Virus record (IMG/VR): IMGVR_UViG_3300031993_000007
From: a virus
Taxonomy: Duplodnaviria > Caudoviricetes
Reading direction: 5' to 3' (one strand)
Length of the DNA stretch: 64,000 nt
Shown here: positions 6,333-62,061 of the stretch, in pieces
How the letters are laid out: each line of letters begins with the position of its first letter
Position numbering within the stretch: the first letter of the stretch is position 1
Made by a program: the position numbers and the translations under genes
Notes under the pieces: model-generated
What the model saw: the letters and a program-made list of their open reading frames with translations, nothing else
Databases searched by the model: none
What the model was told of the DNA's origin: nothing

Positions 6333-6370
6333 TAATATAAATATGGAAATCCCGAAGGATTTCCATATTT
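6333..6370 (-). promoter_or_regulatory. Terminator (14-bp stem, UUCG loop) overlapping early promoter TATATTA
   Basis: Hairpin 6339-6370; TAATATA (plus strand) at 6333-6339. Confidence 0.75.
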
Positions 6371-6389
6371 AATCTCTGTTTGAGAGCAA

Positions 6390-7178
6390 TTATTCTGCAC
6401 CAAAGTTGCCAACGTTTTCGGTCTGGAGGCAGGCGATGGAAGCGAAGGAGCTCAAGGTGGCGGCAGCATATTCAAGCACACCTGCACCGAACCAGCGGTC
6501 AGCTGTAAAGCTCTGTTCCACAGTCACGCCTTCCTGAGAACCCTGCTGGAAGTTCAGATGAGAGCGCTGAATCTTCAGAGGTTGGACGTTAGTGTAGTAC
6601 GTTGCATCTTCGATATCGTAAGCAATCTGACGAGCAGCTTCGCCAATCTTACCAGCAGACGGCTTGAGCTGGACATAAAGCAATTCGCCAGTATGGTTAC
6701 GAGCGGCATAATCTACGCCATGTTCTGCCGGGTAAGTAGCAATACCGGAGTGCGGGTCACGGATAGAGCTAACCCAGTAGTTGTAGGCTTCAATGATCGG
6801 GGATCCGGCATATTCGTTGTGGCTCATGGTGAAGCCAGAACCCTTAGAGCCGATGGCACCGCTGAACTGGCTTTCGTTGCCAGTAAAGCCGATCTGAACG
6901 CCGACAGGAGAGATTTCGATGTCGTCGTTACCCTGGAAGCTCTTCAGGTTCTTCTCGGTGATAGCCGGGAAATAATCGAATGTCTTAGTGAACCAAGACG
7001 GCAGACGGATCCACTTAATAAACGCATAACCAGTGATCAGCGGGTCAAGAGGAAGGGTCTTAGTATTGAATCCACCAGTGTAGAAGGTATCGGTCTTTGC
7101 CTGTTCTGCACTATCGTTGTGAAGAGAAATAGCGCTCGTGGCTCGACGTAACCCGTAATTTGATCCTTTATAGGCCAT
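6390..7178 (-). CDS. Tail tube protein
   Basis: 262 aa directly downstream of sheath; YNYWVSSIRDPHSG, GELLYVQLKP, YYTNVQP tube-like pattern. Confidence 0.75.
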   Translation of the reverse strand: MAYKGSNYGLRRATSAISLHNDSAEQAKTDTFYTGGFNTKTLPLDPLITGYAFIKWIRLPSWFTKTFDYFPAITEKNLKSFQGNDDIEISPVGVQIGFTGNESQFSGAIGSKGSGFTMSHNEYAGSPIIEAYNYWVSSIRDPHSGIATYPAEHGVDYAARNHTGELLYVQLKPSAGKIGEAARQIAYDIEDATYYTNVQPLKIQRSHLNFQQGSQEGVTVEQSFTADRWFGAGVLEYAAATLSSFASIACLQTENVGNFGAE

Positions 7179-7210
7179 AATTTTTTGTCCTTATTTAAAG
7201 AAAAAAGAAG

Positions 7211-7238
7211 AAAGAGGGGCGAGATTCGCCCCATCTTT
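7211..7238 (-). terminator. Hairpin plus U-tract between sheath and tube
   Basis: GGGGCGA/TCGCCCC stem followed by T-rich run on minus strand. Confidence 0.55.
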
Positions 7239-7247
7239 CAGGGAAGG

Positions 7248-11555: not shown

Positions 11556-11625
11556 ACTGTCCTCATTTGAGTAGATTGTTTTAAGTTTACGGACTTCGGT
11601 GGAAGTCCGCTTATGGATTGTTACC

Positions 11626-11637: not shown

Positions 11638-11669
11638 TCTAGGGCCTTTATAGAATCTTTGAAATTTAT

Positions 11670-14141: not shown

Positions 14142-14142
14142 G

Positions 14143-19454: not shown

Positions 19455-19461
19455 TATATTA
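19455..19461 (+). promoter_or_regulatory. Early promoter TATATTA (plus a late-type motif at 19508-19519)
   Basis: Plus-strand copy of the cassette motif, upstream of the RNAP beta piece. Confidence 0.55.
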
Positions 19462-19544
19462 AGCATTGAACAGGAAATTTAAAAGTTTCTGTTGTCCTGT
19501 CTTGGACAACTAGAAATTACTAATTTTCGCAACCCAGAGGTAAA

Positions 19545-21053
19545 ATGGAAACAGCAACAGAAGAAGTAGCTGATCAGCTATTAGTTGAGCAGTGGTATGA
19601 AAGATATCAAGGAGCGAATCCGGAAAAATTCAATGAAGCCTTCATTTACAATAAAGGTAGTTCAGAGAATATGAAGGATATCATCGCTCACGTCTCCAAA
19701 GCAATGGAAAGTACTGGACACGTTAAGTATCTGGACTGCACCATTGAAGAAGATGAAAGCAAATTCTCCGATATTCATAAGATCGAAGAGTCTCGTCTGT
19801 ACGAGGCTACGATCCGCTTCAAGATATTCTGTGTCGAAGACGGCAAAAATTATCAAGAAGAGGAGGTGTCAATTAAATTGTTATTGCCGAGAGTAATTAA
19901 CAATTTCTTCTTCAAGATCAACGGTATTATGTACTATGCAATCTACCAAATGATTGATCGAGGTACCTATGCTGTTGGCAATAATACGATTGGCTTGAAA
20001 ACCATGCTTATGCCATTCGTGATTCGCCGGAAGGAAGAAATTTTCAGAGACACTGAAGGCACAGAGTATCGAAATAGAGTTATGGAACTCGACGTGTTCC
20101 GTAGGTCTGTGAACATCATGCTGTATTACATCAGCGACGGTGGATGGGACCAGACTATGAGGTTCTTTGGAGCTGACCAGTTCGTGAGTGTTATAGACCA
20201 AAAACCTACCGAAGAAGATTTAGAACAGTTTGCGTATTTTGAAGTTGGAAAGAAATTCTGGTTCAAGGCTAGTAGAGAATTTTTGGCTACTGACAAGTGG
20301 CTATCTGGGTGTTTAATCTCTCTCCTCTCTAAAGCTAGATTTGAAAGCCTTGACGATCTTTCTAAACCTGAGTTCTGGAACTTCCAGCTTGGTAAGATCT
20401 ACACGACTACCAAAGAGCAAGCCATCAATAAGGCAGACAAGATTCATACTTCAGTTCGAAGAATCTTGGATGGATGCACCAGTGATAATATGGTTCACGT
20501 TCTGCCGAAAGATAAGAAAAGCATTTATCATCTCTTCAGGTGGATCTTGTGGTTCTATGACGATCTGATTCGTGAAGATAACATGGACATCAAGAACAAG
20601 AGACTCCGTCTGAACGAGTATGTGCTGTATCCGTTTATCAAGAAACTCAGCACAGAAACGTATCGTTGCTTGAATACTCGAAAAATTACGATGAAGATTC
20701 TCAGGAGTATGTTCAGCAACATCAAACCCAATATCTGCTTAAAGCAGCTTGTCACTAATGAACTTCTGCGTTTCGCAAACGGCGTAAACGGAATTGAGCT
20801 CTTTAGTGCTGCTATGAAGATCACCCAAGCTGGCCCTCAAGGCTTGACCAATCGAGACAATGTGCCGATGAGATATCGTGGCATTCACGACTCGTATGTA
20901 GGTGTCCTTGACTTGGCATTCAGTTCTGCTGATGACCCAGGTATTACCGCTAGCTTGGTTCCATTTGTAAAAACCGACGGGTTGTTCTTTGATCGCACTG
21001 TAAAGTATGTGACTCCAGAACTTCCTGAAGTGTTCATCCCAATCGGAAAGTGA
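19545..21053 (+). CDS. Phage multisubunit RNAP, beta N-terminal subunit (probably non-virion RNAP)
   Basis: [23 protein letters not shown] resembles RpoB [32 protein letters not shown] resembles DHLGNRRIR; GPQGL...RGIHDSYVG resembles GPGGL...RDVHPTHYG. Confidence 0.88.
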   Translation: [502 protein letters not shown]

Positions 21054-21088: not shown

Positions 21089-21361
21089 TTATTTTTTGTC
21101 CGCTTCGGCTAATTCTATAGCCTTTAGCATAGCGGCTCTGCAACGTTGACAACGGGTTTGTTCCTTACGTTCTTGGTCGGAACCTCCCATTCCAAATCTG
21201 GAACAATTCCAGCATTTGTCTATAATCTTTGCAGTATCACGGTTATACCTAGCAGCATTTTCATAATGCTTGGCGGATTCGTTGTAGCTACTTCCGTGAG
21301 TTACACCTGCGTATATGGGATTTAGTGGCCTTGCTAGGGCTTCAGCATCTGATGGACTCAT
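21089..21361 (-). CDS. Small Zn-finger-like protein
   Basis: CWNC...CQRC. Confidence 0.65.
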   Translation of the reverse strand: MSPSDAEALARPLNPIYAGVTHGSSYNESAKHYENAARYNRDTAKIIDKCWNCSRFGMGGSDQERKEQTRCQRCRAAMLKAIELAEADKK

Positions 21362-22415
21362 GAGACAACCGTGTGTTTAATTTTGTGGCGGCTATGGATA
21401 CAGCCAACACGGTTGTGTCCATCTTAAAGACAGGTTTGAATTCAATGAATCCTTCAGAGTTTACCTTCGGATCCATCACTAGCTGCGACTCTTGGTCACT
21501 AATCCTGACAAGATACACGTCATGATTCAACAAGTTAATCATCGCCTTGAAGAACTCTTCGGAACATAGATCTTTGATCATTTCACAACGAGATTTCAAA
21601 GTCGTAATGAACGGCATGTCATTCAGAGTAGTCTTCGTTGGATCCACAAGGTCTCCTTGTAGGCGAAGGTTGCTCCCGTTATCTCTCCAGATCTGATTGA
21701 TCTTGTTAATAACAGCAGAGTATTCGCACGAAAGGTTATCTGCGGTAATGGCTGCTCCGTTAAGCTTCTTCTTGAACATGTTGCTCTTGTAGTAAGCTGT
21801 AAAGTACCTATCCTCATCTAGGAGTTTGTACCTAATTCCCAATCCGATAGACTGCACTTCACCTTCGTAAAACGGTTCGTTTTTCTCATTCAACGGAACA
21901 AGCTCGATATTCACGAGCACATCATTGCCAAACCTCTCGTACAGATTGTTTATCTTCTGGCAAGCATGAGCAATCTCTTTTGTGGCTTTTGCACTTAGAG
22001 CTAATTCAGTACGCTCAAGACCCGAAAGGCTTGTAGAACGCCCGTCTCCGGCAGGTTTATAAAACTCTACGGCAATAACCAGATTGTAAGAGTTGTCTAG
22101 CTTTATCCTAAGGGAATGAGCTGCACATCCCCGACAGTTCAAGAAATTTCGTTGAAACCGCTTTTCGCCTTCAAAAATATGATGATACGCACTTAATTCA
22201 TGAAAGGCCTCAAAGATGTAATGGAATTTGTTCGTTGGTTCTTTGGACTTTTCGAACAGATAGAATATCTGTTCATCTACAGATTTGCCTCTGAGTTTTT
22301 CAAGGCATTTCTTAGGATCGTACGGATCTTCTTCAGGTTTGGTTTCAACTCCATAAACCAGAAGTGCAAACCATTTAGCAATGGTCTTGATTGTAGTGCT
22401 GAGAAATTTTTTCAT
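21342..22415 (-). CDS. Hypothetical protein
   Basis: 357 aa, SD AAGGA. Confidence 0.8.
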   Translation of the reverse strand: MKKFLSTTIKTIAKWFALLVYGVETKPEEDPYDPKKCLEKLRGKSVDEQIFYLFEKSKEPTNKFHYIFEAFHELSAYHHIFEGEKRFQRNFLNCRGCAAHSLRIKLDNSYNLVIAVEFYKPAGDGRSTSLSGLERTELALSAKATKEIAHACQKINNLYERFGNDVLVNIELVPLNEKNEPFYEGEVQSIGLGIRYKLLDEDRYFTAYYKSNMFKKKLNGAAITADNLSCEYSAVINKINQIWRDNGSNLRLQGDLVDPTKTTLNDMPFITTLKSRCEMIKDLCSEEFFKAMINLLNHDVYLVRISDQESQLVMDPKVNSEGFIEFKPVFKMDTTVLAVSIAATKLNTRLSHESIRC

Positions 22416-22723: not shown

Positions 22724-22735
22724 AACACTTCATTG
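22724..22735 (+). promoter_or_regulatory. Putative late-type promoter AACACTTCATTG
   Basis: AACA-N6-TG, about 20 nt before ATG 22754. Confidence 0.5.
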
Positions 22736-22753
22736 AAATTTATTAGAGGATTT

Positions 22754-23932
22754 ATGCCAAGTCAATGTTTTATAGAATTGGAACCTTATATCGTAAAAGG
22801 TTTAAATGACAAAGACAATCAGAAATTGTTAGAAGCTCATGTCAAAAAGTATCTAGGAGATAACGCTCCTATATTGGCTAAAGCTGATCTTCATGAATGT
22901 CCAGGATTTAGTAGAGAAGCAGACCAAGGCATTATGTTTGAATGTATGGGAACTTCCAGAGCTCAATTTGCAGATGTTCTAAAGAGAACTACCAACCGTG
23001 ATGTTAGAACTGGATGGAGAATGTTCCAGAATGAAATGTATCTAGCTTGTACTATGGCAGTACGTTTCTTTATCAAGACTAACAACAAGAGGATGGCAGA
23101 ACTCATCAGCATCTTCTTTGGAGTATGGCTCTATTCTAGTTTGCATCGTAAGTACTGGGAATTCGGTAACAACGAAGCTGCAATGGCATATACCATCAAC
23201 AACTTGAGCAATAAATTTGACCTCAAAAAATTTGGAAGCGTTATAGCCGTTTTGAAAAAGATTTCTGATTCTAACTTAGCTAATGCTAAGTCTAGACTGC
23301 TCAGCAAGAGCGATGACGACATTTTTGTGTATGCTCGAGACTATCGCACAAGATGCAACAGCTTCATCAAGAACATCGCTAAAGAGTACTATGACAACCT
23401 TCAGAACGGTCGATACATGGTTGTAGACAAGACTACAAACCTTGACGAAGAGGGTGAAGAGTATGCCGTGGAACGTACATCTGACAGCGGAGCTATATTC
23501 TCAGCTTCTGAGAGCTTTGAAATCTGGTTCATGACTAACAGACTTAACGAGCGCTTGCTACGAACCATTTCTAGCCTTACCCCAGAAATTAGCCCTGCTA
23601 AGCTGGCTAATACTCTTAACAGCATCAAGGCTGATAACAATGGCCGGATCCGAAAGGTGCTGGCCGGAATGCTTGGATCCCTGATGGAAGTCCAGAAAGA
23701 TAATAGCCTTAGAGCTATCCACTCTAGGGAGTTTCCAATTTTCTGTGTTCGCATTCTCTCTAAGAGCAACAGTAAGAATGAACTAGTTATCGAAATGAAG
23801 AAGTCAGTAGACGGCCTTCTAAATGATTACTGTGAGACATTCCGAAAGACTAAGCGTGAAGCCTCCAAGATCAATTACCGTAAGGCTCTGGTTTTGTATT
23901 TCGCTATGGCTCTTCAGATTCAGCGCAAGTAG
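22754..23932 (+). CDS. Probable sigma-like promoter-specificity subunit of non-virion RNAP (phiKZ gp68 / AR9 gp226 type)
   Basis: All-alpha 392 aa; LYSSLHRKYW...YTINNLSNKFDLKKFGS...DDD...D.RTR.NS..KNI..EYY matches my recollection of this family; near the RNAP beta piece. Confidence 0.6.
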   Translation: MPSQCFIELEPYIVKGLNDKDNQKLLEAHVKKYLGDNAPILAKADLHECPGFSREADQGIMFECMGTSRAQFADVLKRTTNRDVRTGWRMFQNEMYLACTMAVRFFIKTNNKRMAELISIFFGVWLYSSLHRKYWEFGNNEAAMAYTINNLSNKFDLKKFGSVIAVLKKISDSNLANAKSRLLSKSDDDIFVYARDYRTRCNSFIKNIAKEYYDNLQNGRYMVVDKTTNLDEEGEEYAVERTSDSGAIFSASESFEIWFMTNRLNERLLRTISSLTPEISPAKLANTLNSIKADNNGRIRKVLAGMLGSLMEVQKDNSLRAIHSREFPIFCVRILSKSNSKNELVIEMKKSVDGLLNDYCETFRKTKREASKINYRKALVLYFAMALQIQRK

Positions 23933-27213: not shown

Positions 27214-29472
27214 TTACAAGTACTGCTTGACTTCGCTAAAGCCAAAGGTTACAGTCATTTCTTCACCAGCAAAGTTGGTAATCTTGTCGGTGTTATCGTC
27301 GAAGCTGTCGCAGTCATTGAACCAACGGCGTGCAACGATCATTGCAAACTTGGTTTGCGCAATCTTAATGCCCAGATCACGCTTTTCCTTTGTTTCTGCA
27401 TTGAACATTTCAACGATTTTTTTAGACTTTTCATCTTCGGTCTTGCACTTCGCCAAAGTCTTGTCAATATCTTCAATGACCTTGCGGAGAAGAGTCAGAG
27501 AGGGAGTAGCCTTGTTCTTCAGATCCATAGCGTCTTCAACCTTCGGAATCTTAGAGAACTTCGCAAAGGCAGAATCGAAATTGAGCGAGAGATAGAAGTC
27601 GTCTTCGTTCTTCTCAACCTGAGTCGGCGGATTAAAGCCTTCAGAGGTAATCCCAAGAGAAGCGAGCCACTGAGTTTCTTCGTTGTCGGGCCACTTATTC
27701 TTATTGGTATACTTCGTGTCGAGACCCTTCTTAAGCCATCCGAGGTATTTGAGACGGAACTTGAGTTCAAGAAGATCGTATTCCATCTTCGTCATTGTGG
27801 CCTTCTTAACGCCACGAGCACGGTTGATATTGACGACTGGAAGTTTGCTGATGTCAACATCAACACGGATAAGACCATTAGCGGTCTGCTTTTGTTCACC
27901 AAGAATCACAGCCTTGTGGCGGCTGATTTCCTTAACAGTTTCCGGCGTGAGTTCCAACGGAAGCAAAGAAGTATTGACAAGCCCATCCTTCACAATGTTG
28001 TAATTGCGGTAGACAGTGCTGTTCATCTTGTCCTTGTTGAACTTGTTCTTCGGAAGAGTAAGTTCCACGTCGATCTTGATGCGTGCATTCAAGTTAGCAC
28101 GGGTTTCGTTCCAGACGAAATTGTCAACCGGATAACCCTTATTGATAAATTCCATCTTGACATTGGTTTCTTCCTTCTTGTCGAGCACTTCCTTGAGTTC
28201 GGAAGCGGTCTTAGCCTTAGCCAACTTTTCCTGATCTTCGGCAGAAAGGGCTTCAGACTTTGCTACGGCCTTGGAACCAATGCGCTTGTAGGAGAATGCC
28301 GGGTCAGTAACCCAGATGAGGTTGCCATCAACCTTCTGAATGTCGTTGAAGAAGTCAACGATGCAGTAGTTAGCCGGAGACGGCTTGTACTTCGGATCGA
28401 TTTCACCACGGAGAGATTCATCAAACACAGCATTCAGCAATTCGCCTTGGAAGGCAAAGAGCTTCTGCTTGCCAAAGCTGTTGGCATACATTTCGATGAA
28501 CTTCTTGTCGCCGATCGTAGCAAGAACCTTTTCAGTCCAGTCGTACTTCAGCATGTCAGCCAAGATGTAAGCTGCGGCATAGAGATAGGACTTGTCGTCA
28601 TTCTTCTTCGCCTTAGCCTTTTCGTCGCTGATATCATCGTTGGTGAAGGAATAGAATTCCATTACGCCTTCAGGAAGCATGATCTTTCCGTTGTTGGCGA
28701 ACGCCACGTTGATAAGCTTGGTAGCCGGATTGATAAAGAACACCTTCGGCACAGACGGGCTGATGTTGTCAGTCACACTCTTCGGAATACTTACTTCGAT
28801 GACGTTCACGGAGCTGCCAGCGCCAGTAATGGCGGCGTTGAACTTGGGCTCGTAAGATTCAAAATCTTCAGCAGTCACCTTGGCACCGCCGAGTTCTGAA
28901 GCCATCTTGGACAGAGCGTCGGAGTCTGCGTAGTAGCCGTATTCAATAATCGTGGCACCCTTGACGCCACTCTTGATTTCACCAAGAGCATCAATAACTT
29001 CCGGGAACGGGCCTTCGTTATGGCCACCGTCACTCAGGAAGATCCAGTTAAGGCCATTCTTGGCTTTTTCAATGAGCTTCTTTGTTTCCTTGATAGGATT
29101 GACGAAGTCCGTACAACCTCCAGGTTGGAGGAAGCGATCAATAGCAGCATGAAGTTGTTGAAGCTGTTCCGGAGTGGAACACTTTACGAACTCCTTCAGC
29201 ACAAAGCAGCGATTGCTTCCTGCAAATGCAATGATTGTAATTGTATCTTCATCCTTCACAAGGTCGGACAAACGGTTCTTCAGCTGACGCCGCATGAGGG
29301 GCAATTCGTCCCACATAGAGCCACTGATGTCACAGCAAAAGACGTGATCGACCGGAGTCTTTACGGCTTTGACTTTCTTTGCTTTGGATTCTTTGATAGT
29401 CACTTCATGAGCATTTACGAAGAAGTGCTGAGTGACCTTGCAACTTCTCGTAGATAACGTTGTCTTATTCAT
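27214..29472 (-). CDS. vWA (MIDAS) domain protein
   Basis: CCDISGSM, GGCTDF, IFLSDG; 752 aa; strong codon bias. Confidence 0.85.
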   Translation of the reverse strand: MNKTTLSTRSCKVTQHFFVNAHEVTIKESKAKKVKAVKTPVDHVFCCDISGSMWDELPLMRRQLKNRLSDLVKDEDTITIIAFAGSNRCFVLKEFVKCSTPEQLQQLHAAIDRFLQPGGCTDFVNPIKETKKLIEKAKNGLNWIFLSDGGHNEGPFPEVIDALGEIKSGVKGATIIEYGYYADSDALSKMASELGGAKVTAEDFESYEPKFNAAITGAGSSVNVIEVSIPKSVTDNISPSVPKVFFINPATKLINVAFANNGKIMLPEGVMEFYSFTNDDISDEKAKAKKNDDKSYLYAAAYILADMLKYDWTEKVLATIGDKKFIEMYANSFGKQKLFAFQGELLNAVFDESLRGEIDPKYKPSPANYCIVDFFNDIQKVDGNLIWVTDPAFSYKRIGSKAVAKSEALSAEDQEKLAKAKTASELKEVLDKKEETNVKMEFINKGYPVDNFVWNETRANLNARIKIDVELTLPKNKFNKDKMNSTVYRNYNIVKDGLVNTSLLPLELTPETVKEISRHKAVILGEQKQTANGLIRVDVDISKLPVVNINRARGVKKATMTKMEYDLLELKFRLKYLGWLKKGLDTKYTNKNKWPDNEETQWLASLGITSEGFNPPTQVEKNEDDFYLSLNFDSAFAKFSKIPKVEDAMDLKNKATPSLTLLRKVIEDIDKTLAKCKTEDEKSKKIVEMFNAETKEKRDLGIKIAQTKFAMIVARRWFNDCDSFDDNTDKITNFAGEEMTVTFGFSEVKQYL

Positions 29473-29521
29473 TTTTTTTGTTTACCTTTGTAATTGCTCT
29501 GAGGCATTTCAGAGCAAATGA

Positions 29522-29562
29522 TAATATAGAAACAAAAAATAAAAGGCTGCAAGCGCAGCCTT
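29522..29562 (-). promoter_or_regulatory. Terminator + early promoter cassette
   Basis: Hairpin 29543-29562; TATATTA 29522-29528. Confidence 0.75.
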
Positions 29563-32562: not shown

Positions 32563-33009
32563 TTATTTACTGAATTTTGCAAGTTCATATATCTCTCCTA
32601 GCGTGCGTTTTCCTAAATTTACCTTTATCTTAGAGAGTCTTTCCTTTTCGTTTAAAGAGAGACAAGACATTACCTTAGCCAGAATAGTCATATCTGGATA
32701 GTTAGTATTCAGCTTTTCCTTGGCTACAGACAGGCTTTCTTTAGCTGATTTAATCTTAGCTTCTAGCCACGATCTATCAGTCCTCTCTATACAATTTTCG
32801 TCATTACAGAATCCTGATATTGACGCATACACGGTTCCAAGAGAGACAAAGATTTTGGAATAGTCATCTTCCATACAATCTGACCATTCCACTGAAAGAG
32901 CTACATGCCCATTTAGGATTTTCCCGTATTCTATGATCTCATTACTATCTTGTTTGATGAGGTCAAGACCTTCCTGTTGGCATATCTTCTCAAATTCACT
33001 TATTTCCAT
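32563..33009 (-). CDS. Hypothetical protein
   Basis: SD AAGGAG; first gene of module. Confidence 0.75.
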   Translation of the reverse strand: MEISEFEKICQQEGLDLIKQDSNEIIEYGKILNGHVALSVEWSDCMEDDYSKIFVSLGTVYASISGFCNDENCIERTDRSWLEAKIKSAKESLSVAKEKLNTNYPDMTILAKVMSCLSLNEKERLSKIKVNLGKRTLGEIYELAKFSK

Positions 33010-33122
33010 TTTTACTCCTTAAAGAAAAATTTGGGTTGGTGGATTCCATAGAGAATTCCAAAGCCAATTTAAGATTTCTCTATAAATTATGCTTTGGTAT
33101 TCTCTATATTTATTCCACAATT

Positions 33123-33180
33123 TAATATATCACCAGGTCATAGAAATTTACAAAAAAGGTAAGGACGCTTGTCCTTACCT
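33123..33180 (-). promoter_or_regulatory. Terminator + early promoter cassette
   Basis: Hairpin 33157-33180; TATATTA 33123-33129. Confidence 0.75.
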
Positions 33181-36250: not shown

Positions 36251-36399
36251 TATTTCTCCTTAGGTTGAGTTCTATCTTTCGCATGGAAGATAGTTTGGTT
36301 GTAGTGAAACTTGTAGTAGAGATCCATTCCGCACTTTGGACAAGTGCAATCAAAACTGTTAACCTGATGGTCACAATTTTCATTCAGACATTTTGGCAT
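36250..36399 (-). CDS. Zn-ribbon miniprotein (49 aa)
   Basis: Below cutoff; MPKCLNENC...CPKCG; TAATG overlap; first gene after promoter. Confidence 0.7.
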   Translation of the reverse strand: MPKCLNENCDHQVNSFDCTCPKCGMDLYYKFHYNQTIFHAKDRTQPKEK

Positions 36400-36433
36400 G
36401 ACAAAATCCTCGAGTTGATGATTGTCTATCTAA

Positions 36434-36476
36434 TAATATAAAAAATAAAAAAGATAAGGATATAGAGTCCTTATCT
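36434..36476 (-). promoter_or_regulatory. Terminator + early promoter cassette
   Basis: Hairpin AGATAAGGAT..GTCCTTATCT 36452-36476; TATATTA 36434-36440. Confidence 0.75.
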
Positions 36477-36499
36477 CGTAGTATCATTCTTTCGTTGGT

Positions 36500-40540: not shown

Positions 40541-40552
40541 TTTGATTTTCCT

Positions 40553-41167
40553 TTAATTTTCTTTCGTCGAGCTACTTATTGAACTCATAAGCTTTTCAAC
40601 AATATCAAACACCTTGGACTTGCCATCGCCGGATTTCACACTTGCAAATTTTCCTTCAATAGTCTTTGCGGCATTCTCGATATCTGCCAAGGCAAGCTTC
40701 TCGACTTCCTCGTCTCGGGATCCCATTTTGGAAAGATTCCCGATTGCAGCTCTGTAAAGCATACTGCTACCATCGGTAGTGACTCGAATAACCTTATAGT
40801 CATTCGTAACTACTACCATTCCCTTCCAGTACTGGTTAACTTCGCTGTTGAAAGATTCCATTTCCCACGGAAGGACAGAGCGGATTAATCCGGCCAGACA
40901 ATCAATCTCACAGATATCGTCGTGCTCAAGATCGCCCTCTTCACCTTCGTCATATCCAAGATTGGCAAGGATGCCATTCTTAATCGGAAAGTCCTTAGGA
41001 GCCTGTTCCAGTTCCATTTCGTGAGAAATGTCAGAAATGTAATCCGACCAGTCACGATTAGAAGCAATGCCGTCATAGTCGTGGTCGCCATACATCACAA
41101 GGCAAATCATATTGCCCGGATGCTTGGCAAAGACTGCGTCAATTCGTTCTTTAATTTGAATGTCCAT
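40553..41167 (-). CDS. Hypothetical, paralog of 46887..47456
   Basis: IKERIDAVF; GMVVVTNDYKV. Confidence 0.8.
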   Translation of the reverse strand: MDIQIKERIDAVFAKHPGNMICLVMYGDHDYDGIASNRDWSDYISDISHEMELEQAPKDFPIKNGILANLGYDEGEEGDLEHDDICEIDCLAGLIRSVLPWEMESFNSEVNQYWKGMVVVTNDYKVIRVTTDGSSMLYRAAIGNLSKMGSRDEEVEKLALADIENAAKTIEGKFASVKSGDGKSKVFDIVEKLMSSISSSTKEN

Positions 41168-41184
41168 TAGTTATCTCCTTTGTA

Positions 41185-41248
41185 GGTTGAATTGTACATA
41201 CTATAATATACCGCAGAAAAAATAAAGGCCTAGTAAAGACCTTTATTT
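41185..41248 (-). promoter_or_regulatory. Terminator + early promoter + TCAACC leader cassette
   Basis: TATATTA 41204-41210; hairpin about 41220-41248. Confidence 0.75.
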
Positions 41249-41563
41249 CTTCAAAATTTCCAGATATGCCCATTTACAAAATGCTACTTTGTCGTATAAG
41301 CATACATCGTTTATGTCTTCAGAGTAAAACATACCATCCGGTATTCTAAGCTCAGAAGCACGATCTCTTTCTTCAGATAACGGGAATCGTTTGCAATCAT
41401 CGTATTGACTCCAATCGGTATATTCTACGCACACATCCATATACTCTGATAGAGTCATGTTGCATTCACTAGAAGATATGCAAGTTTTTGTATCAGCAGA
41501 GATCGATGATGATTAGCTGCAAGCCATAAAAATGATGGAAATAAGAATGACTACGTACCTCAT
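41243..41563 (-). pseudogene. Lipoprotein gene with premature TAA at codon 17
   Basis: GGAGG-ATG, MRYVVILISIIFMACS-stop-SSSISADT..., in frame with ORF 41243..41458. Confidence 0.8.
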
Positions 41564-41601
41564 AATATACCTCCATTGTTTAATTTTATGATTTACGCAT
41601 C

Positions 41602-41662
41602 ATTTAATATACCGCCGGATCATAGAAATCTACGAAAAAAAAACGAGTTGTTACCCTCGTTT
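41602..41662 (-). promoter_or_regulatory. Terminator + early promoter cassette
   Basis: TATATTA 41605-41611; hairpin 41641-41662; 39 bp near-identical to 51612-51650. Confidence 0.75.
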
Positions 41663-41894
41663 CGTGCCACTTCCGTCCTCCGTCATAATCCACAAACAGC
41701 TACGCATGCTGTTACACTGGATCATAGACTTCGAAACGCCTCTCGACGCTGGCTCCACGTTATCAAGCGAGTCCCCACCTCCCCTGGGAAGGTAGATCAA
41801 CCGTACAAGTACTATTGGGAATACTCTCGTGGATGCGGTGTTTCACTTTATTTTTCGCTTGTTTCATTATTCAATATAATACAGTCTTTTAGAA

Positions 41895-42453: not shown

Positions 42454-42867
42454 TCATTGAATTAGCGAATTGATAACTTTGGCTACATTTTTATAGGTCT
42501 TATACCACTCGCAATGATGGCTTCCTCCAAGCCATGCACTACGGTATGAAGAAGATCCAAGGTATTCTACAATCATCGGCACGTATAGCGACGGATCAAT
42601 GGTCAGTATCTTGCAAACTTTCTTTACGAATTCGTGTTTGTTGATGAAATCTTTAACGGAGTCATCAGAACGTCTAAACCATGTTGTTGGAATTTCTTCT
42701 TCTGAGGATGCCCAAGGCTCTAGCCCAAGCTGTTTAAGAATGTATCTAGATTGAACCCGCTCTGTCGACAAAAAGTGAACTCCGGCAACGGCATAGATAA
42801 ATTCTCTCAAAGCAAAGAACACAGCTTTCTCCAAGGACATTTCGCCTTTTTCAAATTTTTTATTCAT
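42454..42867 (-). CDS. DP-turn family protein
   Basis: VCKILTIDPSLYVPMIV...INSLIQ. Confidence 0.8.
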   Translation of the reverse strand: MNKKFEKGEMSLEKAVFFALREFIYAVAGVHFLSTERVQSRYILKQLGLEPWASSEEEIPTTWFRRSDDSVKDFINKHEFVKKVCKILTIDPSLYVPMIVEYLGSSSYRSAWLGGSHHCEWYKTYKNVAKVINSLIQ

Positions 42868-42925
42868 TGTATTATTCCTTTACAGCAGCTAGAAAAAATA
42901 TTTCTATTATAAGTACCTCGCTGTT

Positions 42926-42968
42926 TAATATACAAGCAAAAATAAAAGGTATACCCGAAGGTAGACCT
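42926..42968 (-). promoter_or_regulatory. Terminator + early promoter cassette
   Basis: TATATTA 42926-42932; UUCG hairpin 42947-42968. Confidence 0.75.
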
Positions 42969-43632: not shown

Positions 43633-43974
43633 TTAGCAGTTCTCAGGTGAAAGCTCGTAGATTGTTCCATCTTTTCTGGTCTCAATCCATTCTTCTCTTT
43701 CAGCTATGTATGAAGCCAGATCGTAGTTCGCAATATCTTCGGGAACCTTCGTCATGTCTATTGCAAGCGGATTCTTTAATGCCCTTATGATTTCAGAGCA
43801 ACCAACTTCGACTATATTCTCTTCGTTATAGAACGTAAGAGTTTTATTTGATTTATGTTTGCTACTGAATTCTTCGAATATTCTTAAAAGAATATTTCTG
43901 TTTCCTTCTGTGACAAATCCGCATAATGGAAATTTTATGCTCTCAACGTTGTAAATGATAAGAAATTTATCCAT
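43633..43974 (-). CDS. Hypothetical protein
   Basis: Start ATG 43974 (MDKFL). Confidence 0.75.
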   Translation of the reverse strand: MDKFLIIYNVESIKFPLCGFVTEGNRNILLRIFEEFSSKHKSNKTLTFYNEENIVEVGCSEIIRALKNPLAIDMTKVPEDIANYDLASYIAEREEWIETRKDGTIYELSPENC

Positions 43975-43994
43975 TTGTGTTTTCCTTTTGTTTG

Positions 43995-44059
43995 GGTTGA
44001 ATTTGTACACATTATAATATACAAGCAAAAAGAAAAAGGTCTACCCGAAGGTAGACCTT
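43995..44059 (-). promoter_or_regulatory. Terminator + early promoter + leader cassette
   Basis: TATATTA 44015-44021; UUCG hairpin 44036-44059. Confidence 0.8.
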
Positions 44060-44246
44060 ATAGCCCTAGTGCTGACTGACAGCTTCACGACTGAACCATG
44101 TAGGTACATCTTTGACGTTTTGCTCGTTTGAAGTCGTGGACGATCGTTACTTCGCCGAATAAGAGGGCTGTTTATTTGTTATACGCATATCTGTACAATG
44201 TATTGTTATTCTTTCTCACATGAGTATTTTTCTTTACTTTTCATAG

Positions 44247-46894: not shown

Positions 46895-47456
46895 CTTGCT
46901 GGGTGATTTGAGAAAAGTTGTGTTTAAGCTTGGCAAATACATCAGGATCGCTGAATAGAGCTACCTTCCTGCGTACAGGTTCAAAGTATTTATTATTGAA
47001 TATCAACAGCTTTTTGATAACAGGCGTATCCATTTGCAGATTAAACTTATAGAAAGCCGATCTGATGAAGTAGAGCTGATCTTCGGCATAACGCTTAAAG
47101 ATAATCTTATAGATATCAAACTTGGAATTCACAGCTATAACGCCGTATTCATTTTCTTTGAGTTCGTCAAGTTCCCAAAAACTTGTAGAGTTAGCGAAAT
47201 AGCAGTTTTCGTAGGTGTCAATCTCTTCAAGAACAGAGGAAAGCTGTTCAAAGTCTTCCGGAATAAAAATCTTAAGTTTGTCGTTATCAGCGATTATCCT
47301 CCTGAAGGTGTCTAGTCCTATATTGGCAGAATGGATATAGTAATGCTTTTCTTGAAGCTCTCCTCTAGCCAAGAATAACGGAACATAGATTTCACTCAGG
47401 CTTGAAACACTCCGAAAGATTGCTTCGAGCTTAGCCTTAACAGCATTTTCGATCAT
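46887..47456 (-). CDS. Hypothetical, paralog of 40553..41167
   Basis: Start ATG 47456; VKAKLEAIF; GVIAVNSKFDI. Confidence 0.75.
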   Translation of the reverse strand: MIENAVKAKLEAIFRSVSSLSEIYVPLFLARGELQEKHYYIHSANIGLDTFRRIIADNDKLKIFIPEDFEQLSSVLEEIDTYENCYFANSTSFWELDELKENEYGVIAVNSKFDIYKIIFKRYAEDQLYFIRSAFYKFNLQMDTPVIKKLLIFNNKYFEPVRRKVALFSDPDVFAKLKHNFSQITQQDV

Positions 47457-47487
47457 TTGTATCTCCTTAGGTTGGTTGTACATTCTA

Positions 47488-47530
47488 TAATATACAAACC
47501 AAAAAAAGAAAGACATCCGAAGATGTCTTT
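47488..47530 (-). promoter_or_regulatory. Terminator + early promoter cassette
   Basis: TATATTA 47488-47494; UUCG hairpin 47509-47530. Confidence 0.8.
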
Positions 47531-48927: not shown

Positions 48928-49548
48928 TTAAATTACCTGTTTGATAGCCTTTTGGGATATATCCTTTACTGCTTTTTCGTATTCTTCTTTGGTGATCTCT
49001 ATTATAGAGTCAGGCACTTCTTCAGTCAGAGAGTACGAAGTTCTGGTGTGCTTAGGTCTAAGGATGAATACCGGGTTCTTGTCATAGTCTTTGTAAATGA
49101 AGACCAAAGTTCCGATGATGTTAAATAACGGATCTCCTTGATTGAAATTGATCTTAGCTTCACTTACATGGATATAAAATCCGCTATGACCTTCTTTTGT
49201 TAATTCGTCGGTAGGATATTCATACAGATACTTATCTTTGAAGAATTCATCAAAGGCTTTATTGACAGCTTGTATGTCGTTCAGCAATTCTTGAGTAGAT
49301 CTGTCATCTTGAATCAAAACTTTCGTCTTGAATTCTTTTAAAGATTTCAAGAGGGCACTTCCAGTTGCTTCGAGCTGAATAACATGGCACTCTGGATCTC
49401 TGCCATTAGACATCATATTGGTAATGTCTGACGCATATTTGGTAATATTTACCTTAAGATTGTTAATATTATTCCGGTTATTCAGAATCTTGCGGATCTT
49501 TTCTTTAAGATCTCCAGGAAAGATAAGATTGGATTTTTGTTCAGGCAT
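48928..49548 (-). CDS. Hypothetical protein
   Basis: First gene of module. Confidence 0.75.
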   Translation of the reverse strand: MPEQKSNLIFPGDLKEKIRKILNNRNNINNLKVNITKYASDITNMMSNGRDPECHVIQLEATGSALLKSLKEFKTKVLIQDDRSTQELLNDIQAVNKAFDEFFKDKYLYEYPTDELTKEGHSGFYIHVSEAKINFNQGDPLFNIIGTLVFIYKDYDKNPVFILRPKHTRTSYSLTEEVPDSIIEITKEEYEKAVKDISQKAIKQVI

Positions 49549-49586
49549 GTTTCAATTCTCCATTGAGTTGATGGTTATACAAAAAA

Positions 49587-49641
49587 TAATATAGGCACGT
49601 TTGAATGTATAAAAAATAAAGGTCTACCCGAAGGTAGACCT
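49587..49641 (-). promoter_or_regulatory. Terminator + early promoter cassette
   Basis: TATATTA 49587-49593; UUCG hairpin 49620-49641 identical to 44037-44058. Confidence 0.8.
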
Positions 49642-49646
49642 GTTTA

Positions 49647-50416: not shown

Positions 50417-51139
50417 CTAGAGAGATGCATCATAGCCAGATTCGTTAGTCTTGACTTTCTTGTTGATATACAAACCGCCGTAGAAGTGATCTCTGTCGGA
50501 ATTGTAATCATTCGATCTCGGATGTTCGTCATACGCTAAATATTTGCCGTCTTTGGCTTCTTTACCCTCTCTACAAGCCTTTCTGAGATCTTGAGAAGTC
50601 ACGATATTGTGGTTAGAAAGATTGATAACCTTGAAGCCAATATATACCCCATCTTTCATAGCCGGAGCAATGGTTGCATCTTCAAGAGCCATGTCCTTAT
50701 AAGAGCCACCCCCATTGCAAATGGTGTAATTTGCAAAGAATCCGGTCACTCCATGTTCCTTCATGTATTCGATGTCTGCCTTAAGAGCAGCCATGACGTC
50801 TTCAGAAACTGGGGTAAGGGCTAATGCAAGATTAAAGTGCACGATTTTGTAACCACCATGCTTCTCATCTTTTTCGGTAGAGTACAGATGACGCTCCCAG
50901 AGGAAGGTTCCGCCAAAGTAATGCTTGTCGAATTTTCCGTTGCAAGCATAGTACATGTCATTATTTTCCAGATCTTTGAAGCCTTCTGCCTTTCTCAATC
51001 TTTCGACAAAGATATCAACGCTGGAATTGTCGATGCGATGGATCGTAACAAAGGGGTTTTTGATTCCGTACTTTTTGACCTCCATAAAGTTGCGGATTTC
51101 GAGTTCTTGGCCAATGCCAAAGTTAGATTCTATTTGCAT
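50417..51139 (-). CDS. Hypothetical protein
   Basis: Start ATG 51139 (MQIESN). Confidence 0.8.
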   Translation of the reverse strand: MQIESNFGIGQELEIRNFMEVKKYGIKNPFVTIHRIDNSSVDIFVERLRKAEGFKDLENNDMYYACNGKFDKHYFGGTFLWERHLYSTEKDEKHGGYKIVHFNLALALTPVSEDVMAALKADIEYMKEHGVTGFFANYTICNGGGSYKDMALEDATIAPAMKDGVYIGFKVINLSNHNIVTSQDLRKACREGKEAKDGKYLAYDEHPRSNDYNSDRDHFYGGLYINKKVKTNESGYDASL

Positions 51140-51158
51140 ATAGATTATTCTCCTATAG

Positions 51159-51226
51159 GGTTGAATTGTGCGTAATTTAATATACAAGTAAAAGAAAGGC
51201 ACAAAAAATAAAGCCCCGAAGGGCTT
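51159..51226 (-). promoter_or_regulatory. Terminator + early promoter + leader cassette
   Basis: TATATTA 51178-51184; UUCG hairpin 51211-51226. Confidence 0.8.
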
Positions 51227-51230: not shown

Positions 51231-51587
51231 TTAGGGTCTTGAACTTGCGACCTTCTTTCCACTTTTATCTCCTTTGGATTTGGTGGGTTTCAGAAGTCCT
51301 TCGCAGAATTTGTGGATAGGATCTTTCTTGAGAGCCGCTTTTGCCGTATATCCCATGCCCGCATGAACCAATTCTCTGATTTGATCCATCAGTTCACTGC
51401 TTATGAGCACTGGGGCTGGATCCCAAGGAATAAATCCAATGGCCATTCTGGCATTCCACAAGTCTTCAAGACTTTCAATGTCACGCCAATCTACTACAGA
51501 TTCTGTCACTTCCTTGGGTTTAAGGTTATGACAGAACAACTTTTTCGACGGGTGTGACTTCACAAGTTTATTGTAGGTTTTAAGCAT
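51231..51587 (-). CDS. Hypothetical protein (single-gene module)
   Basis: Flanked by two cassettes; SD GGAGG. Confidence 0.75.
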   Translation of the reverse strand: MLKTYNKLVKSHPSKKLFCHNLKPKEVTESVVDWRDIESLEDLWNARMAIGFIPWDPAPVLISSELMDQIRELVHAGMGYTAKAALKKDPIHKFCEGLLKPTKSKGDKSGKKVASSRP

Positions 51588-51611
51588 TTTTGCCTCCAGT
51601 TAATGTTCAGT

Positions 51612-51675
51612 ATTTAATATACCGCCGGATCACAGAAATCTACGAAAAAAGAAAGGCCTACCTTCAGGTAGACCT
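51612..51675 (-). promoter_or_regulatory. Terminator + early promoter cassette
   Basis: TATATTA 51615-51621; hairpin 51654-51675. Confidence 0.8.
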
Positions 51676-52245: not shown

Positions 52246-52774
52246 TTAGTGCTCAGCAGCTACTAGAGCTACTTTGTGCTTAAGATTCTTAGCCCATTTG
52301 ATAATCTGACTAAACTTTCTTTCTGTAAACTCCGAAGAGATTTCATCAGCTGGAGAATCTCCCAATGCTTTATTGACATCTGCATACAGCAACTTTGAAG
52401 ACGCCTTTGTGTTGACGAATGACTTCCAGAATTTGTATCCGAATCTACCGGAATCTTCTTCCAGCAGCCAGTCGATAAAATCTTCTATCAGAGCAGATGC
52501 GCTTTCGTAGTACATGACTTCACAGTCTTCATTGTCATATCCCTTATGGCTAATGAAGTACAAGAATTCCGGCGGTAGAACCTCGTTACCCCTAACGCTA
52601 GAAAGGGCGCTTAGCGTTCCAAGCTCGCCTTCCTTTTTCCAGGTTTCGATCAGTAGATCTCCCCATCCTTTAAGCATATCCTTGAGCTTTACCTCGCTTT
52701 CTATTGCACGAAGCTCTTTCATTAGAGGATGCTTTTCAAGATCCAATCTTTCAAGAAATGATTTTTTCTGCCAT
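52246..52774 (-). pseudogene. Gene with +1 frameshift near the start
   Basis: AAGGAG-ATG 52774; removing one base of T6 run 52762-52767 gives MAEKSFLERLDLEKHP... joined to ORF 52246..52746. Confidence 0.7.
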
Positions 52775-52790
52775 AGGTCTCCTTAAGTTT

Positions 52791-52848
52791 AATTGTACAT
52801 ACTATAATATACAAATCAAAAAAAGATAAGGATGCAAAGTCCTTATCT
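52791..52848 (-). promoter_or_regulatory. Terminator + early promoter cassette
   Basis: TATATTA 52805-52811; hairpin 52824-52848. Confidence 0.8.
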
Positions 52849-55343: not shown

Positions 55344-55558
55344 TATTTTGTCTCCTGACGGTTGGGTTGTTCTATTTTCTCAAGGAATTCCAAGAGTTTG
55401 ACCTGACACTCGCCACATGTATGAGCGTCCATCAAAGTCTGTGCAACCACAGTTTTAGCTTCTTTGGGATCCTTGTTAGAACCCGGAAAGGGCATAGGAA
55501 AGGCTATGCGATTAGTGTAGCAAGCGTCCTTTCCGCATTTAATACATTTTTCTGTCAT
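55343..55558 (-). CDS. Small Zn-finger protein
   Basis: CIKC...CGEC. Confidence 0.7.
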   Translation of the reverse strand: MTEKCIKCGKDACYTNRIAFPMPFPGSNKDPKEAKTVVAQTLMDAHTCGECQVKLLEFLEKIEQPNRQETK

Positions 55559-55588
55559 TGTCTACCTCGTTATGTTGAACACAAAAAT

Positions 55589-55630
55589 TAATATACATAC
55601 AAAAAATAAAGACGAACCCGAAGGTTCGTC
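55589..55630 (-). promoter_or_regulatory. Terminator + early promoter cassette
   Basis: TATATTA 55589-55595; UUCG hairpin 55611-55630. Confidence 0.8.
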
Positions 55631-55632
55631 AT

Positions 55633-55866
55633 CTACTTAATAATCTTTACTTCATAGCTTCCAATGGGCAAGTCCAAGATTTGTCCAGAGTAAAACCATA
55701 CTCGCAGGACAGATTTGTCTGCTATCCACTGGTAGTTTCGTGCATCTTCTAGGACGTATATGGCCGGAGCTTTCCAGTCCGGTTGTTTCACTTCAATTCT
55801 AATTGGCTTGGATCCTGCGAAGGCCAACCCAACCATTAGTAATGCAATCCACAAAATCTTCTTCAT
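55633..55866 (-). CDS. Small secreted protein
   Basis: MKKILWIALLMVGLAFA signal peptide. Confidence 0.7.
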   Translation of the reverse strand: MKKILWIALLMVGLAFAGSKPIRIEVKQPDWKAPAIYVLEDARNYQWIADKSVLRVWFYSGQILDLPIGSYEVKIIK

Positions 55867-57603: not shown

Positions 57604-57616
57604 ATTGCGATTTCTC

Positions 57617-58030: not shown

Positions 58031-58047
58031 TACGTTAGAAAATCCTC

Positions 58048-60006: not shown

Positions 60007-60007
60007 A

Positions 60008-60448: not shown

Positions 60449-60449
60449 A

Positions 60450-60902: not shown

Positions 60903-61246
60903 AACTTCCCTTCATTCAAAAAGTGTTTACGAATTTCGTCTATGATTTGTACGCCACTTCCCTCTTCCATCCACATATTGCAATGAATGCTAAACGGTTC
61001 TAGATCCTTAAAGACTTTTCTCAATGGCATAAGATACTTGTCCGGATCCAGACTTATGGCACGCTCTAGCTTCGATTCAATATCTGAAAGTAGGTAGAGG
61101 CTTTCGTCCTGCCACTTTATCCATATAGCTAGTCTGGTATTGTCAATGCTGAATTCTTCTTTCATAAAATCCAAGCAATGATCACCAATAGCTTCTGTCA
61201 TGTACAAGCACTTCGAAAGCATTTTAGCAAAGATGTATTTCTGCAT
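60860..61246 (-). CDS. DP-turn family (2)
   Basis: LERAISLDPDKYLMPL. Confidence 0.8.
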   Translation of the reverse strand: MQKYIFAKMLSKCLYMTEAIGDHCLDFMKEEFSIDNTRLAIWIKWQDESLYLLSDIESKLERAISLDPDKYLMPLRKVFKDLEPFSIHCNMWMEEGSGVQIIDEIRKHFLNEGKLCLDLQSNLMESII

Positions 61247-61252
61247 AGTTTC

Positions 61253-61663
61253 TCACTGAAGAAGATGAAGACTCTCTAGAAATTCTTCCTCTGCGACTAC
61301 AAGCGGAGGATTTAAAGCGATTTTCTTGTATCGCTCTAGGAATGGAAGATAGAACCTTATCGGATCTAGTTTCATTAAATCATAGATTGCCTGAGCATTT
61401 TCAATGACTTCTTTCTTGATGCTTGGATAAATCGTGAAATTAGTAACAGCAACATCCCAGTTACTCTTCAAGACAACTATCTGCCAAGGATCTATCCCAG
61501 ATTCTTCTTTAATACTGCTCAGAAGAGTGTCATAAGTATGAATGCGAAGAGTGCGGCAGTACTTTTCTACGATGTTAATTAGCTGCGATGCCGTATCTAT
61601 ATCAAGAATTTTCTTTTGTCTTGATTCTTCGCTTGACTTTGTAGTTTCTTCCGTACTTGACAA
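61253..61663 (-). CDS. DP-turn family (1)
   Basis: IYDLMKLDPIRFYLPFL...LHLLQ; likely TTG start 61663 after GGAGG. Confidence 0.75.
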   Translation of the reverse strand: MSSTEETTKSSEESRQKKILDIDTASQLINIVEKYCRTLRIHTYDTLLSSIKEESGIDPWQIVVLKSNWDVAVTNFTIYPSIKKEVIENAQAIYDLMKLDPIRFYLPFLERYKKIALNPPLVVAEEEFLESLHLLQ

Positions 61664-61997
61664 GGTAGATTCCTCCACTTTTGAGAATTGCACTAACAGG
61701 AATGACTTTGCGATCTCCGGTATAGCCACTATAGACTAAGGATATCCCGGTGTCCTCGTTAGTAGATTCAAGGATATCTCTGATAGCTCTGGCATAGTAA
61801 AACTTTTCAACCGGAGTATCATTGAAGTCAATGTTGAACAGGAGCTGGTTTGAATCTCGATCGAACTCAACTCCGTAAGGGACACTTCCATTAATGGGAA
61901 GCACATTAGGAAATAACTCTAGCCTAACCGTTCCAATCACATTCTCTTTGAAGCGGCTGAAAGATTTAAGTAATCCTTTGGATTTTGATGTGTACAT
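61602..61997 (-). CDS. Hypothetical protein, first gene of the DP-array operon
   Basis: Start ATG 61997 after GAGG. Confidence 0.7.
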   Translation of the reverse strand: MYTSKSKGLLKSFSRFKENVIGTVRLELFPNVLPINGSVPYGVEFDRDSNQLLFNIDFNDTPVEKFYYARAIRDILESTNEDTGISLVYSGYTGDRKVIPVSAILKSGGIYLVKYGRNYKVKRRIKTKENS

Positions 61998-62021
61998 TTT
62001 TACCTCTTGATGTTCAAGATA

Positions 62022-62061
62022 TAATATACTATAAAAAATAAAAGCGCACCCTAAGGTGCGC
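62022..62061 (-). promoter_or_regulatory. Terminator + early promoter cassette
   Basis: TATATTA 62022-62028; hairpin 62044-62061. Confidence 0.8.

Follow-up and report, generated by a model that had tools for sequence, protein, structure and literature searches.

In every jumbo phage that encodes RNA polymerases (RNAPs), the early operons are preceded by an AT-rich motif of ~10 nt that is invariant and lies near -10; the members of the AR9/phiKZ group studied so far are independent of the host polymerase (PMC7598289). The early promoter read by the virion RNA polymerase (vRNAP) of AR9 is AAATATATATTAT-N6-G(+1), which is insensitive to chloramphenicol and active without protein synthesis (PMC5312081); the early promoter is TATATTAC in phiKZ and TATATTAC..GTG in 201phi2-1 (PMC7058600 Table 2). 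Genes for the non-virion RNA polymerase (nvRNAP) are themselves early genes (PMC7598289). Here, repeated elements built around TATATTA (cassettes) were analyzed in a 64,000-nt stretch (the window; w followed by a coordinate is a window position) of the 259,461-base contig IMGVR_UViG_3300031993_000007 from an uncultured phage. Each cassette probably represents the junction of two tandem early transcription units in an AR9-related jumbo phage, combining a terminator, a vRNAP-type early promoter, a leader, and a Shine-Dalgarno (SD) sequence with its start codon. In build, the cassettes resemble the early promoter/stem-loop (PeSL) elements of T4-like phages. Like PeSLs (Arbiol 2010, PMC2839356; Comeau 2014, PMC4122927), they have a stem-loop, an AT-rich stretch, an early promoter, an SD, and a start codon, and they occur as many repeats that are concentrated in a hyperplastic region of orphan genes and lie beside some of the indels and replacements between relatives.

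The window phage can be assigned to the AR9/PBS1-related jumbo phages, and its major capsid protein is ~30% identical to the counterparts in AR9, PBS1, Staphylococcus jumbo phages, and phiR1-37. Comparisons were made with the relatives G001, G002, and G003 and with the metagenome contigs L019, L020, L026, L028, L068, and L069. G001, an IMG/VR contig of 235,300 bases, is the best complete relative obtained, and G002 is a circularly permuted version of this phage. The core genes of the window and G001 (capsid, sheath, terminase) share just 64-70% nucleotide identity; G003 is a closer relative of the window phage than G001. Near-identical copies of the window's contig, compared as gene lists, are present in several further samples. 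A near-identity DNA search of GenBank phages with two 12-kb pieces of the window gave no match.

Anatomy of the TATATTA cassettes

TATATTA occurs 21 times in the window, compared to 10.0 +/- 2.8 times in shuffled sequence, and 19 of these copies are on the minus strand. An earlier note on this DNA had listed 15 minus-strand copies of an arrangement of hairpin, T-tract, TATATTA, leader, SD, and ATG. This description was confirmed at every site: all 15 are intergenic and have, in order, a GC-rich hairpin, a T-tract, TATATTA, a short A/C-rich leader, an SD, and a start codon. The list was incomplete, as a 16th TATATTA promoter on the plus strand (w19455) had been overlooked. The 16 sites are given below, with the predicted start base named before each ATG where the unit begins on the minus strand.

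61995..62064, minus: cassette; hairpin 62064-62041, TATATTA 62028-62022, predicted +1 G 62015, ATG 61997; unit of ~17 genes reaching to hairpin 55633
55556..55633, minus: cassette; hairpin 55633-55608 (TTCG loop), TATATTA 55595-55589, G 55582, ATG 55558; unit reaching to hairpin 52848
52772..52848, minus: cassette; hairpin 52848-52824, TATATTA 52811-52805, G 52798, ATG 52774; two-gene unit
51585..51675, minus: class-2 cassette; hairpin 51675-51654, TTTCTGTGATCC box, TATATTA 51621-51615, G 51608, ATG 51587; single-gene unit (gene A, 118 aa)
51137..51226, minus: cassette; hairpin 51226-51211 (AAGCCC-TTCG-GGGCTT), TATATTA 51184-51178, G 51171, ATG 51139
49546..49643, minus: cassette; hairpin 49643-49618 (GGTCTACC-TTCG family), TATATTA 49593-49587, G 49580, ATG 49548
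47454..47530, minus: cassette; hairpin 47530-47509, TATATTA 47494-47488, G 47481, ATG 47456; six-gene unit
43972..44061, minus: cassette; hairpin 44061-44034 (GGTCTACC family), TATATTA 44021-44015, G 44008, ATG 43974
42865..42968, minus: cassette; hairpin 42968-42947 (GGTCTACC family, 1 mismatch), TATATTA 42932-42926, G 42919, ATG 42867
41561..41663, minus: class-2 cassette; hairpin 41663-41640, TTTCTATGATCC box, TATATTA 41611-41605, G 41598, ATG 41563
41165..41248, minus: cassette; hairpin 41248-41220, TATATTA 41210-41204, G 41197, ATG 41167; unit of ~15 genes reaching to hairpin 36477
36397..36477, minus: cassette; hairpin 36477-36451, TATATTA 36440-36434, A (not G) at 36427, ATG 36399
33007..33180, minus: class-2 cassette; hairpin 33180-33157, TTTCTATGACCT box, TATATTA 33129-33123, G 33116, 107-nt leader, ATG 33009
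29470..29562, minus: cassette; hairpin 29562-29543, TATATTA 29528-29522, G 29515, ATG 29472; unit reaching to hairpin 26908-26889
6301..6368, minus: cassette; hairpin 6368-6341, TATATTA 6339-6333, G 6326, ATG 6303; operon reaching to the bidirectional terminator 3232-3209
19455..19547, plus: 16th promoter; TATATTA 19455-19461, T-G 19467-19468, no hairpin (upstream gene divergent), ATG 19545

The cassettes are statistically real. A position matrix was built from the 15 sites and scored over both strands (128 kb); the sites themselves scored 21-39 bits, compared to 14 bits for the best other position. The matrix consensus is a T-rich tract, TTG, TATATTA, W, A, N3, T, G, N, and ACAA. All seven bases of TATATTA are invariant in the 15 sites, and the core recurs at w19455, in G001, and in the metagenome contigs. 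A G follows TATATTA-N6 in 14 of the 15 sites and is preceded directly by a T in 13; in G001, the base at this position is a purine in all SD-linked sites. Between 29.5 and 64 kb, 14 of the 18 minus-strand copies of TATATTA fall in the 13% of the sequence that is non-coding (P about 1e-9), and the other four (31036, 41563, 45621, and 58930) are not promoter-like and are off the matrix pattern. G001 has 39 TATATTA-N6-purine sites; about 27 of these lie between genes and have either an SD or a long leader.

The hairpins have stems of 5-12 bp and loops of 4-8 nt, with RNAfold energies of -10 to -22 kcal/mol for the 60 nt upstream of TATATTA, and a start codon with an SD is found 18-107 nt past the predicted start base (15 sites). 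A built-in terminator scan and our own scan for a hairpin plus T-tract recovered the same stems. A TTCG loop is present in 7 of the 15 hairpins and TGTACA in 4 of the 15 leaders, so both features exist as described earlier, but the word "often" was generous. In three cassettes (33123, 41605, and 51615; class 2), the T-tract and TATATTA are separated by a further box, TTTCTATGATCC, and this box is also found at several sites of G001, L019, L068, and L069. A pattern search of IMG/VR for the class-2 box gave no match, and a search with the pattern TATATTATAGWATGTACA returned, besides the G001/G002 phage, only contigs without detectable similarity to the window. The box spans ~23 nt (YGTAGATTTCTATGATCCGGCGG) on the minus strand at w33135-33157, 41617-41640, and 51627-51654, and is conserved.

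Fourteen of the 15 cassettes lie within 29.5-64 kb, a region of variable orphan genes, and the units that the cassettes delimit on the minus strand of the early region hold between 1 and about 17 genes each. The proposal that modules hold 1 to about 15 genes therefore holds except for its upper size. That these modules are insulated is also supported, in that elements made of a predicted terminator, an early promoter, a leader, and a ribosome-binding site divide the region. In the proposed arrangement, each element would begin with the intrinsic terminator of the unit before it, made of a GC hairpin, whose loop is often UUCG, and a U-tract. The early promoter would come directly after it, as a T-rich tract, TTG, the invariant TATATTA, and N5-T-G, the G being the likely start base. 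A short G-poor leader of 18-50 nt would follow, and then the SD and the first start codon. Read by a polymerase injected with the DNA, the early region would fire at once as at least 15 units of this size, each terminated on its own. The result is a map of promoters and terminators, with predicted start bases, for an uncultured phage of ~259 kb, in which 16 early units are defined. These units mark orphan genes that would be expressed first and are therefore candidates for roles in host take-over or anti-defence.

Several units have unusual beginnings. The SD-linked ATG of cassette 52805 (52774) opens an ORF of 7 codons, and the real gene start is at 52722, 28 nt past the stop codon of this ORF; the arrangement could be the scar of a recombination event or reflect a leader peptide. 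Promoter 41605 heads a unit of ~350 nt (w41250-41600, minus) that has no gene call in the source record; it contains only a 16-aa hydrophobic ORF starting at ATG 41563 (MRYVVILISIIFMACS) and an uncalled 65-aa ORF, and its product may be either a non-coding RNA or a small membrane peptide. Promoter 36434 is likewise followed by an uncalled ORF (w36250-36399, minus), the first in its unit, whose 49-aa product is Cys-rich and zinc-ribbon-like. The first gene of the 29522 unit encodes a 752-aa protein with a weak VWA match below the cut-off. A 29-nt direct repeat, 79% identical, is shared by the long leader of promoter 33123 (w33061-33089) and a non-coding gap at w47938-47966.

The promoter motif and its polymerase

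The window motif matches the consensus of the vRNAP promoters of AR9 and the phiKZ group. In AR9/PBS1, phiKZ, 201phi2-1, and phiR1-37, as in the window, the promoter has an invariant AT-rich core with TATATTA near -10 (PMC5312081; PMC7598289; PMC7058600) and a conserved purine (in the window, the predicted start base), preceded by a T, at a fixed distance downstream. The sites precede early operons and nvRNAP subunit genes in both cases, and the window contains a split RNA polymerase gene of the AR9 type. There are also differences from AR9: its upstream AAATA is replaced in the window by the T-tract and TTG, and TATATTA-N7-G in AR9 corresponds to TATATTA-N6-G in the window. Judged by these features, the window promoter is a new addition to the AR9/phiKZ class of vRNAP early promoters, and the early-promoter rule of this class reaches a distant, uncultured lineage.

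The plus-strand promoter at w19455 links the motif to a polymerase gene. It lies 83 nt upstream of the following gene.

19545..21053, plus: nvRNAP N-terminal beta-like subunit gene, ortholog of AR9 gp104 (PDB 7S00 chain c, E 1.5e-74; AR9 annotation)

The E value is that of the match to the beta chain in the structure of the AR9 non-virion RNA polymerase (7S00), and AR9 gp104 is annotated as a non-virion RNAP subunit, beta N-terminus. The G001 ortholog (174824-176332) has the same motif at 174816. For Rpb2_6, G001 has matches of 60 and 16 bits, one of them weak and below the Pfam cut-off, and for Rpb1_2 it has matches of 30 and 27 bits, a pattern suggestive of two polymerase sets.

Transcription of the early genes by the host sigma-70/sigma-A RNA polymerase, as in T4, with TATATTA serving as a strong -10-type element, was considered as an alternative. 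Several features weigh against a phage polymerase here. TATATT matches the bacterial -10 hexamer TATAAT at five of six bases, a TG is found directly upstream in 10 of the 15 sites, and the purine is at a distance like that of a start site; the sequence is compatible with host RNA polymerase because of this likeness and the upstream TG. The G is also one base nearer to TATATTA than in AR9 and 201phi2-1. However, no conserved -35 element was found at the cassette promoters, where the -35 position is occupied by the T-tract or the hairpin. Two-hexamer sigma-70 sites between 41 and 56 kb were not enriched and stayed at shuffle level (33, compared to 38.6 +/- 6.2 expected). The invariance of seven bases in all 15 sites, and their recurrence in G001 and the metagenome contigs, is like that of phage-polymerase promoters and unlike that of sigma-70 sites. 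The motif is also that of the AR9/phiKZ vRNAP promoters, in a group whose studied members do not depend on the host polymerase. Host transcription is therefore improbable.

Reading by the phage's virion RNA polymerase, as the earlier note had proposed, is the best-supported explanation of the matching motif, the lack of a -35 element or sigma-70 enrichment, and the nvRNAP gene behind the motif. The proposal is well supported by homology, namely the kinship with AR9, the nvRNAP beta gene, the two beta/beta' domain sets suggested for G001, and the consensus match. By analogy with AR9, phiKZ, and phiR1-37, the enzyme would be a multisubunit polymerase packaged in the virion and injected with the DNA. 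We infer the identity of this polymerase, the start base, and the efficiency of termination from sequence. The AR9 late motif AACA-N6-T[AG] was found upstream of only 2 of 19 non-early genes, too few to define a class of late promoters.

Another motif that recurs, TTTCTAAGATCCGTAAAATTT, is preceded by a hairpin with its T-tract and is sometimes itself followed by TGTCTATGATCCCATATTAAC. It is found at w26842-26900 (minus) and in G001 near 40549, 59288, 93381, 100088, 123614, 124208, and 176366. It resembles the CCGTATTAAAAT boxes sited 12-25 nt upstream of many AR9 early promoters and may be a further promoter class or a regulator site common to AR9-like phages. Four copies of a ~60-nt repeat (…CATATTAAC-TATGCCGAATAGTACCTGAATGATGCGAGTGCAC…) lie in G001 near 59288, 100110, 123592, and 124186, downstream of a CCGTAAAAT-type motif; these copies may represent a small RNA or a leader that is used repeatedly.

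The hairpin and the orientation of the upstream gene

The presence of a hairpin follows the orientation of the gene upstream of the promoter. In the window and G001 together, a strong hairpin was found at 32 of 34 sites with a co-oriented upstream gene and at 1 of 9 sites with a divergent one (Fisher P 2.7e-6). This test used crude ORF calls and a threshold of -10 kcal/mol, and two borderline sites were assigned by hand. The cassette hairpins also have the properties of intrinsic terminators, that is, a GC-rich stem-loop, a T-tract, and a position past a stop codon, as judged from our own scan, the built-in scan, and folding energies. Since a hairpin occurs only with a co-oriented upstream gene, it is best taken on this sequence pattern as the terminator of the preceding unit and not as a part of the promoter. 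The "cassette" is then the outcome of many short co-oriented early units packed head to tail.

The opposite possibility is that the hairpin belongs to the promoter, as in the DNA-hairpin promoters of the phage N4 virion RNA polymerase. The distance from hairpin to TATATTA is short and fairly constant in class 1 (9-14 nt), as such a promoter would have it. Overall, however, the spacing from the end of the stem or T-tract to TATATTA varies from 1 to 32 nt, a canonical T-tract follows the hairpin, and a stop codon precedes it. Moreover, w19455 and seven G001 sites behind divergent genes keep the motif, the SD, and the gene without a hairpin. In AR9, only about 7 of the 29 motif-matched early-promoter sites have an upstream hairpin with a T-tract. 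An N4-type promoter is accordingly very improbable, more so than transcription by the host. With the hairpin assigned to the preceding unit, 15 of the 16 promoter sites in the window are fused to an upstream terminator, and this frequency sets the window apart from AR9. Such hairpin-promoter units are possible compact insulating parts for phage engineering.

Hairpin sequence families that recur across a genome and between related phages are also known from the conserved-sequence terminators of phiKZ and 201phi2-1 (PMC11512511). The window families (GGTCTACC-TTCG, AAGCCC-TTCG, and GATAAGGA) differ from these in being lineage-specific and fused to the next promoter.

Possible gene exchange at the cassettes

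The early region turns over rapidly. Only 11 of the 92 ORFs called on the minus strand between 29.5 and 64 kb have homologs in G001, and their order is scrambled. Eight of ten early-region proteins tested are without a Pfam family, and no relative of a 318-aa early protein was found in IMG/VR. Two early proteins have only 3-4 clusters each among 5.8 billion proteins, and the lineage is thinly sampled. The cassettes could be PeSL-like recombination substrates that actively drive the gain, loss, and exchange of modules, through homologous recombination or minicircle excision, so that the accessory genome would consist mainly of plug-ins made of a promoter, one or more genes, and a terminator. 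We regard this as a tentative possibility, for which the evidence points both ways.

Repetition and sharing of the cassettes speak for such a role. They make up the top repeat families of the window (D1-D6 and D14). Two window sites have exact copies of a 20-nt hairpin, GGTCTACCTTCGGGTAGACC, and two more have near copies; G001, despite the low nucleotide identity of the core genes, has two exact copies and one with an inverted loop. The hairpin also occurs in further small metagenome contigs with mostly unrelated cargo. Some early genes exceed core genes in nucleotide identity to G001 (85% for w51264-51597 and 90% for w42970-43100), and this excess indicates that small early genes have recently moved laterally between the diverged phages.

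Gene A (w51587-51231) is 85% identical in G001 at the nucleotide level and is found in four neighbourhoods (window, G001, L068, and L069). Three of these copies have the AAGCCC-TTCG-GGGCTT hairpin at the 3' end; the exception is G001, where another hairpin comes after the gene and the AAGCCC hairpin is located one module further on. The break downstream of gene A lies between the hairpin/T-tract and the promoter, and beyond it are three promoter subtypes and three unrelated genes. Because of their equal length, the 240-aa genes that follow gene A in the window and in G001 were considered as homologs, but they proved to be unrelated.

The w6333 cassette is an island in G003, identical at 64 of 66 positions (P 2e-4). 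On one side of it are ~840 bp of extra DNA, beyond which the next upstream gene of G003 is 99% identical to that of the window; on the other side, the operon has diverged to 24-64% amino acid identity. In two further cases an extra gene sits exactly between the cassette leader and a shared gene (w47456-46887, compared to G001, and a 133-aa gene of L028), and the same promoter, leader, and ATG stand before non-homologous genes at w52805 and at G001 3092.

Other observations argue against shuffling by way of the cassettes. Relatives bring shared genes into direct contact in six new pairings, four in G001 and two in L026; in none of them does a cassette separate the two genes, which meet at a plain junction of 10-30 nt. 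A 165-aa gene of L028 is inserted at a plain 12-nt junction, and the junction of gene A with the gene upstream of it in L068 likewise lacks a cassette. The segments shared with G001 have 18 ends, of which 6 lie next to a cassette, compared to 16% expected (P 0.06). The repeats are short (27-54 nt) and 60-95% identical, and contigs from other samples that contain the same proteins show mostly the same neighbour genes, with no fresh events seen among them. In phiKZ and 201phi2-1, conserved terminator motifs are kept without a claim of mobility, so function alone may keep hairpin sequences alike. The breakpoint comparison covered few close relatives, and the divergence of G001 is too great for testing junctions, as almost all of them are broken whatever their type.

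The plug-in module proposal of the earlier note was thus only partly supported. Breakpoints coincide with cassettes in several clear cases (gene A, the w6333 island, and the promoter-proximal insertions) but fall equally often at plain gene junctions. Synteny breaks unrelated to cassettes, which the earlier note had named as refuting its proposal, do occur in part of the cases, as the six plain adjacencies and the L028 165-aa insertion show. In our reading, genes would be exchanged singly, each with its own SD, no less often than as modules bounded by cassettes, and the cassettes would be frequent joints rather than an organising principle. As the only repeated, conserved DNA in a region of fast-turnover orphan genes, they are among the places where mosaic joints form and not the sole ones. 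A wider form of the module proposal, about as doubtful as that of active shuffling, is that the AR9-like clade swaps early accessory genes as modules of promoter, gene or genes, and terminator, joined within the T-tract that separates a shared hairpin from the vRNAP promoter. Such a PeSL-type shuffling system would have evolved independently, around a phage-polymerase promoter, and gene A would be a module in circulation.

The comparison with PeSLs has clear limits. In PeSLs, the promoter is a sigma-70 pair of -35 and -10 hexamers or is of the MotA type, whereas the window promoter is a phage-polymerase motif. The window elements are also found in an AR9-like jumbo phage, and many of the rearrangement joints are plain gene junctions. 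As sigma-70 promoter features are lacking and recombination is so far a candidate role, the window element can be described as working like a PeSL while lying outside the PeSL family. If the joints do mediate exchange, composite terminator/promoter elements would be a convergent route for shuffling accessory genes in large phages, whichever polymerase is used.

Rfam and tRNA scans of the window were empty. Six larger proteins encoded between 1 and 29 kb have no Pfam family, and the proteins of 21342-22415 and 22733-23932 have no sequence match in the PDB. The tail sheath homolog at w7248-11555 (minus) is 1435 aa long, and only residues 1155-1433 (the last ~280) align to the sheath profile phrog_19666; the PHROG sheath profiles that it matches are 496-985 positions long. 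A 186-nt stretch without an ORF (w44062-44246, minus) separates the last gene of a unit from its terminator and may be a small RNA or a 3' UTR element; part of it is 82% identical in L020. The last genes of the operon before cassette 62022 (w62068-63419, minus) encode an NAD synthase (PF02540, 1e-46) and an isochorismatase-family protein.

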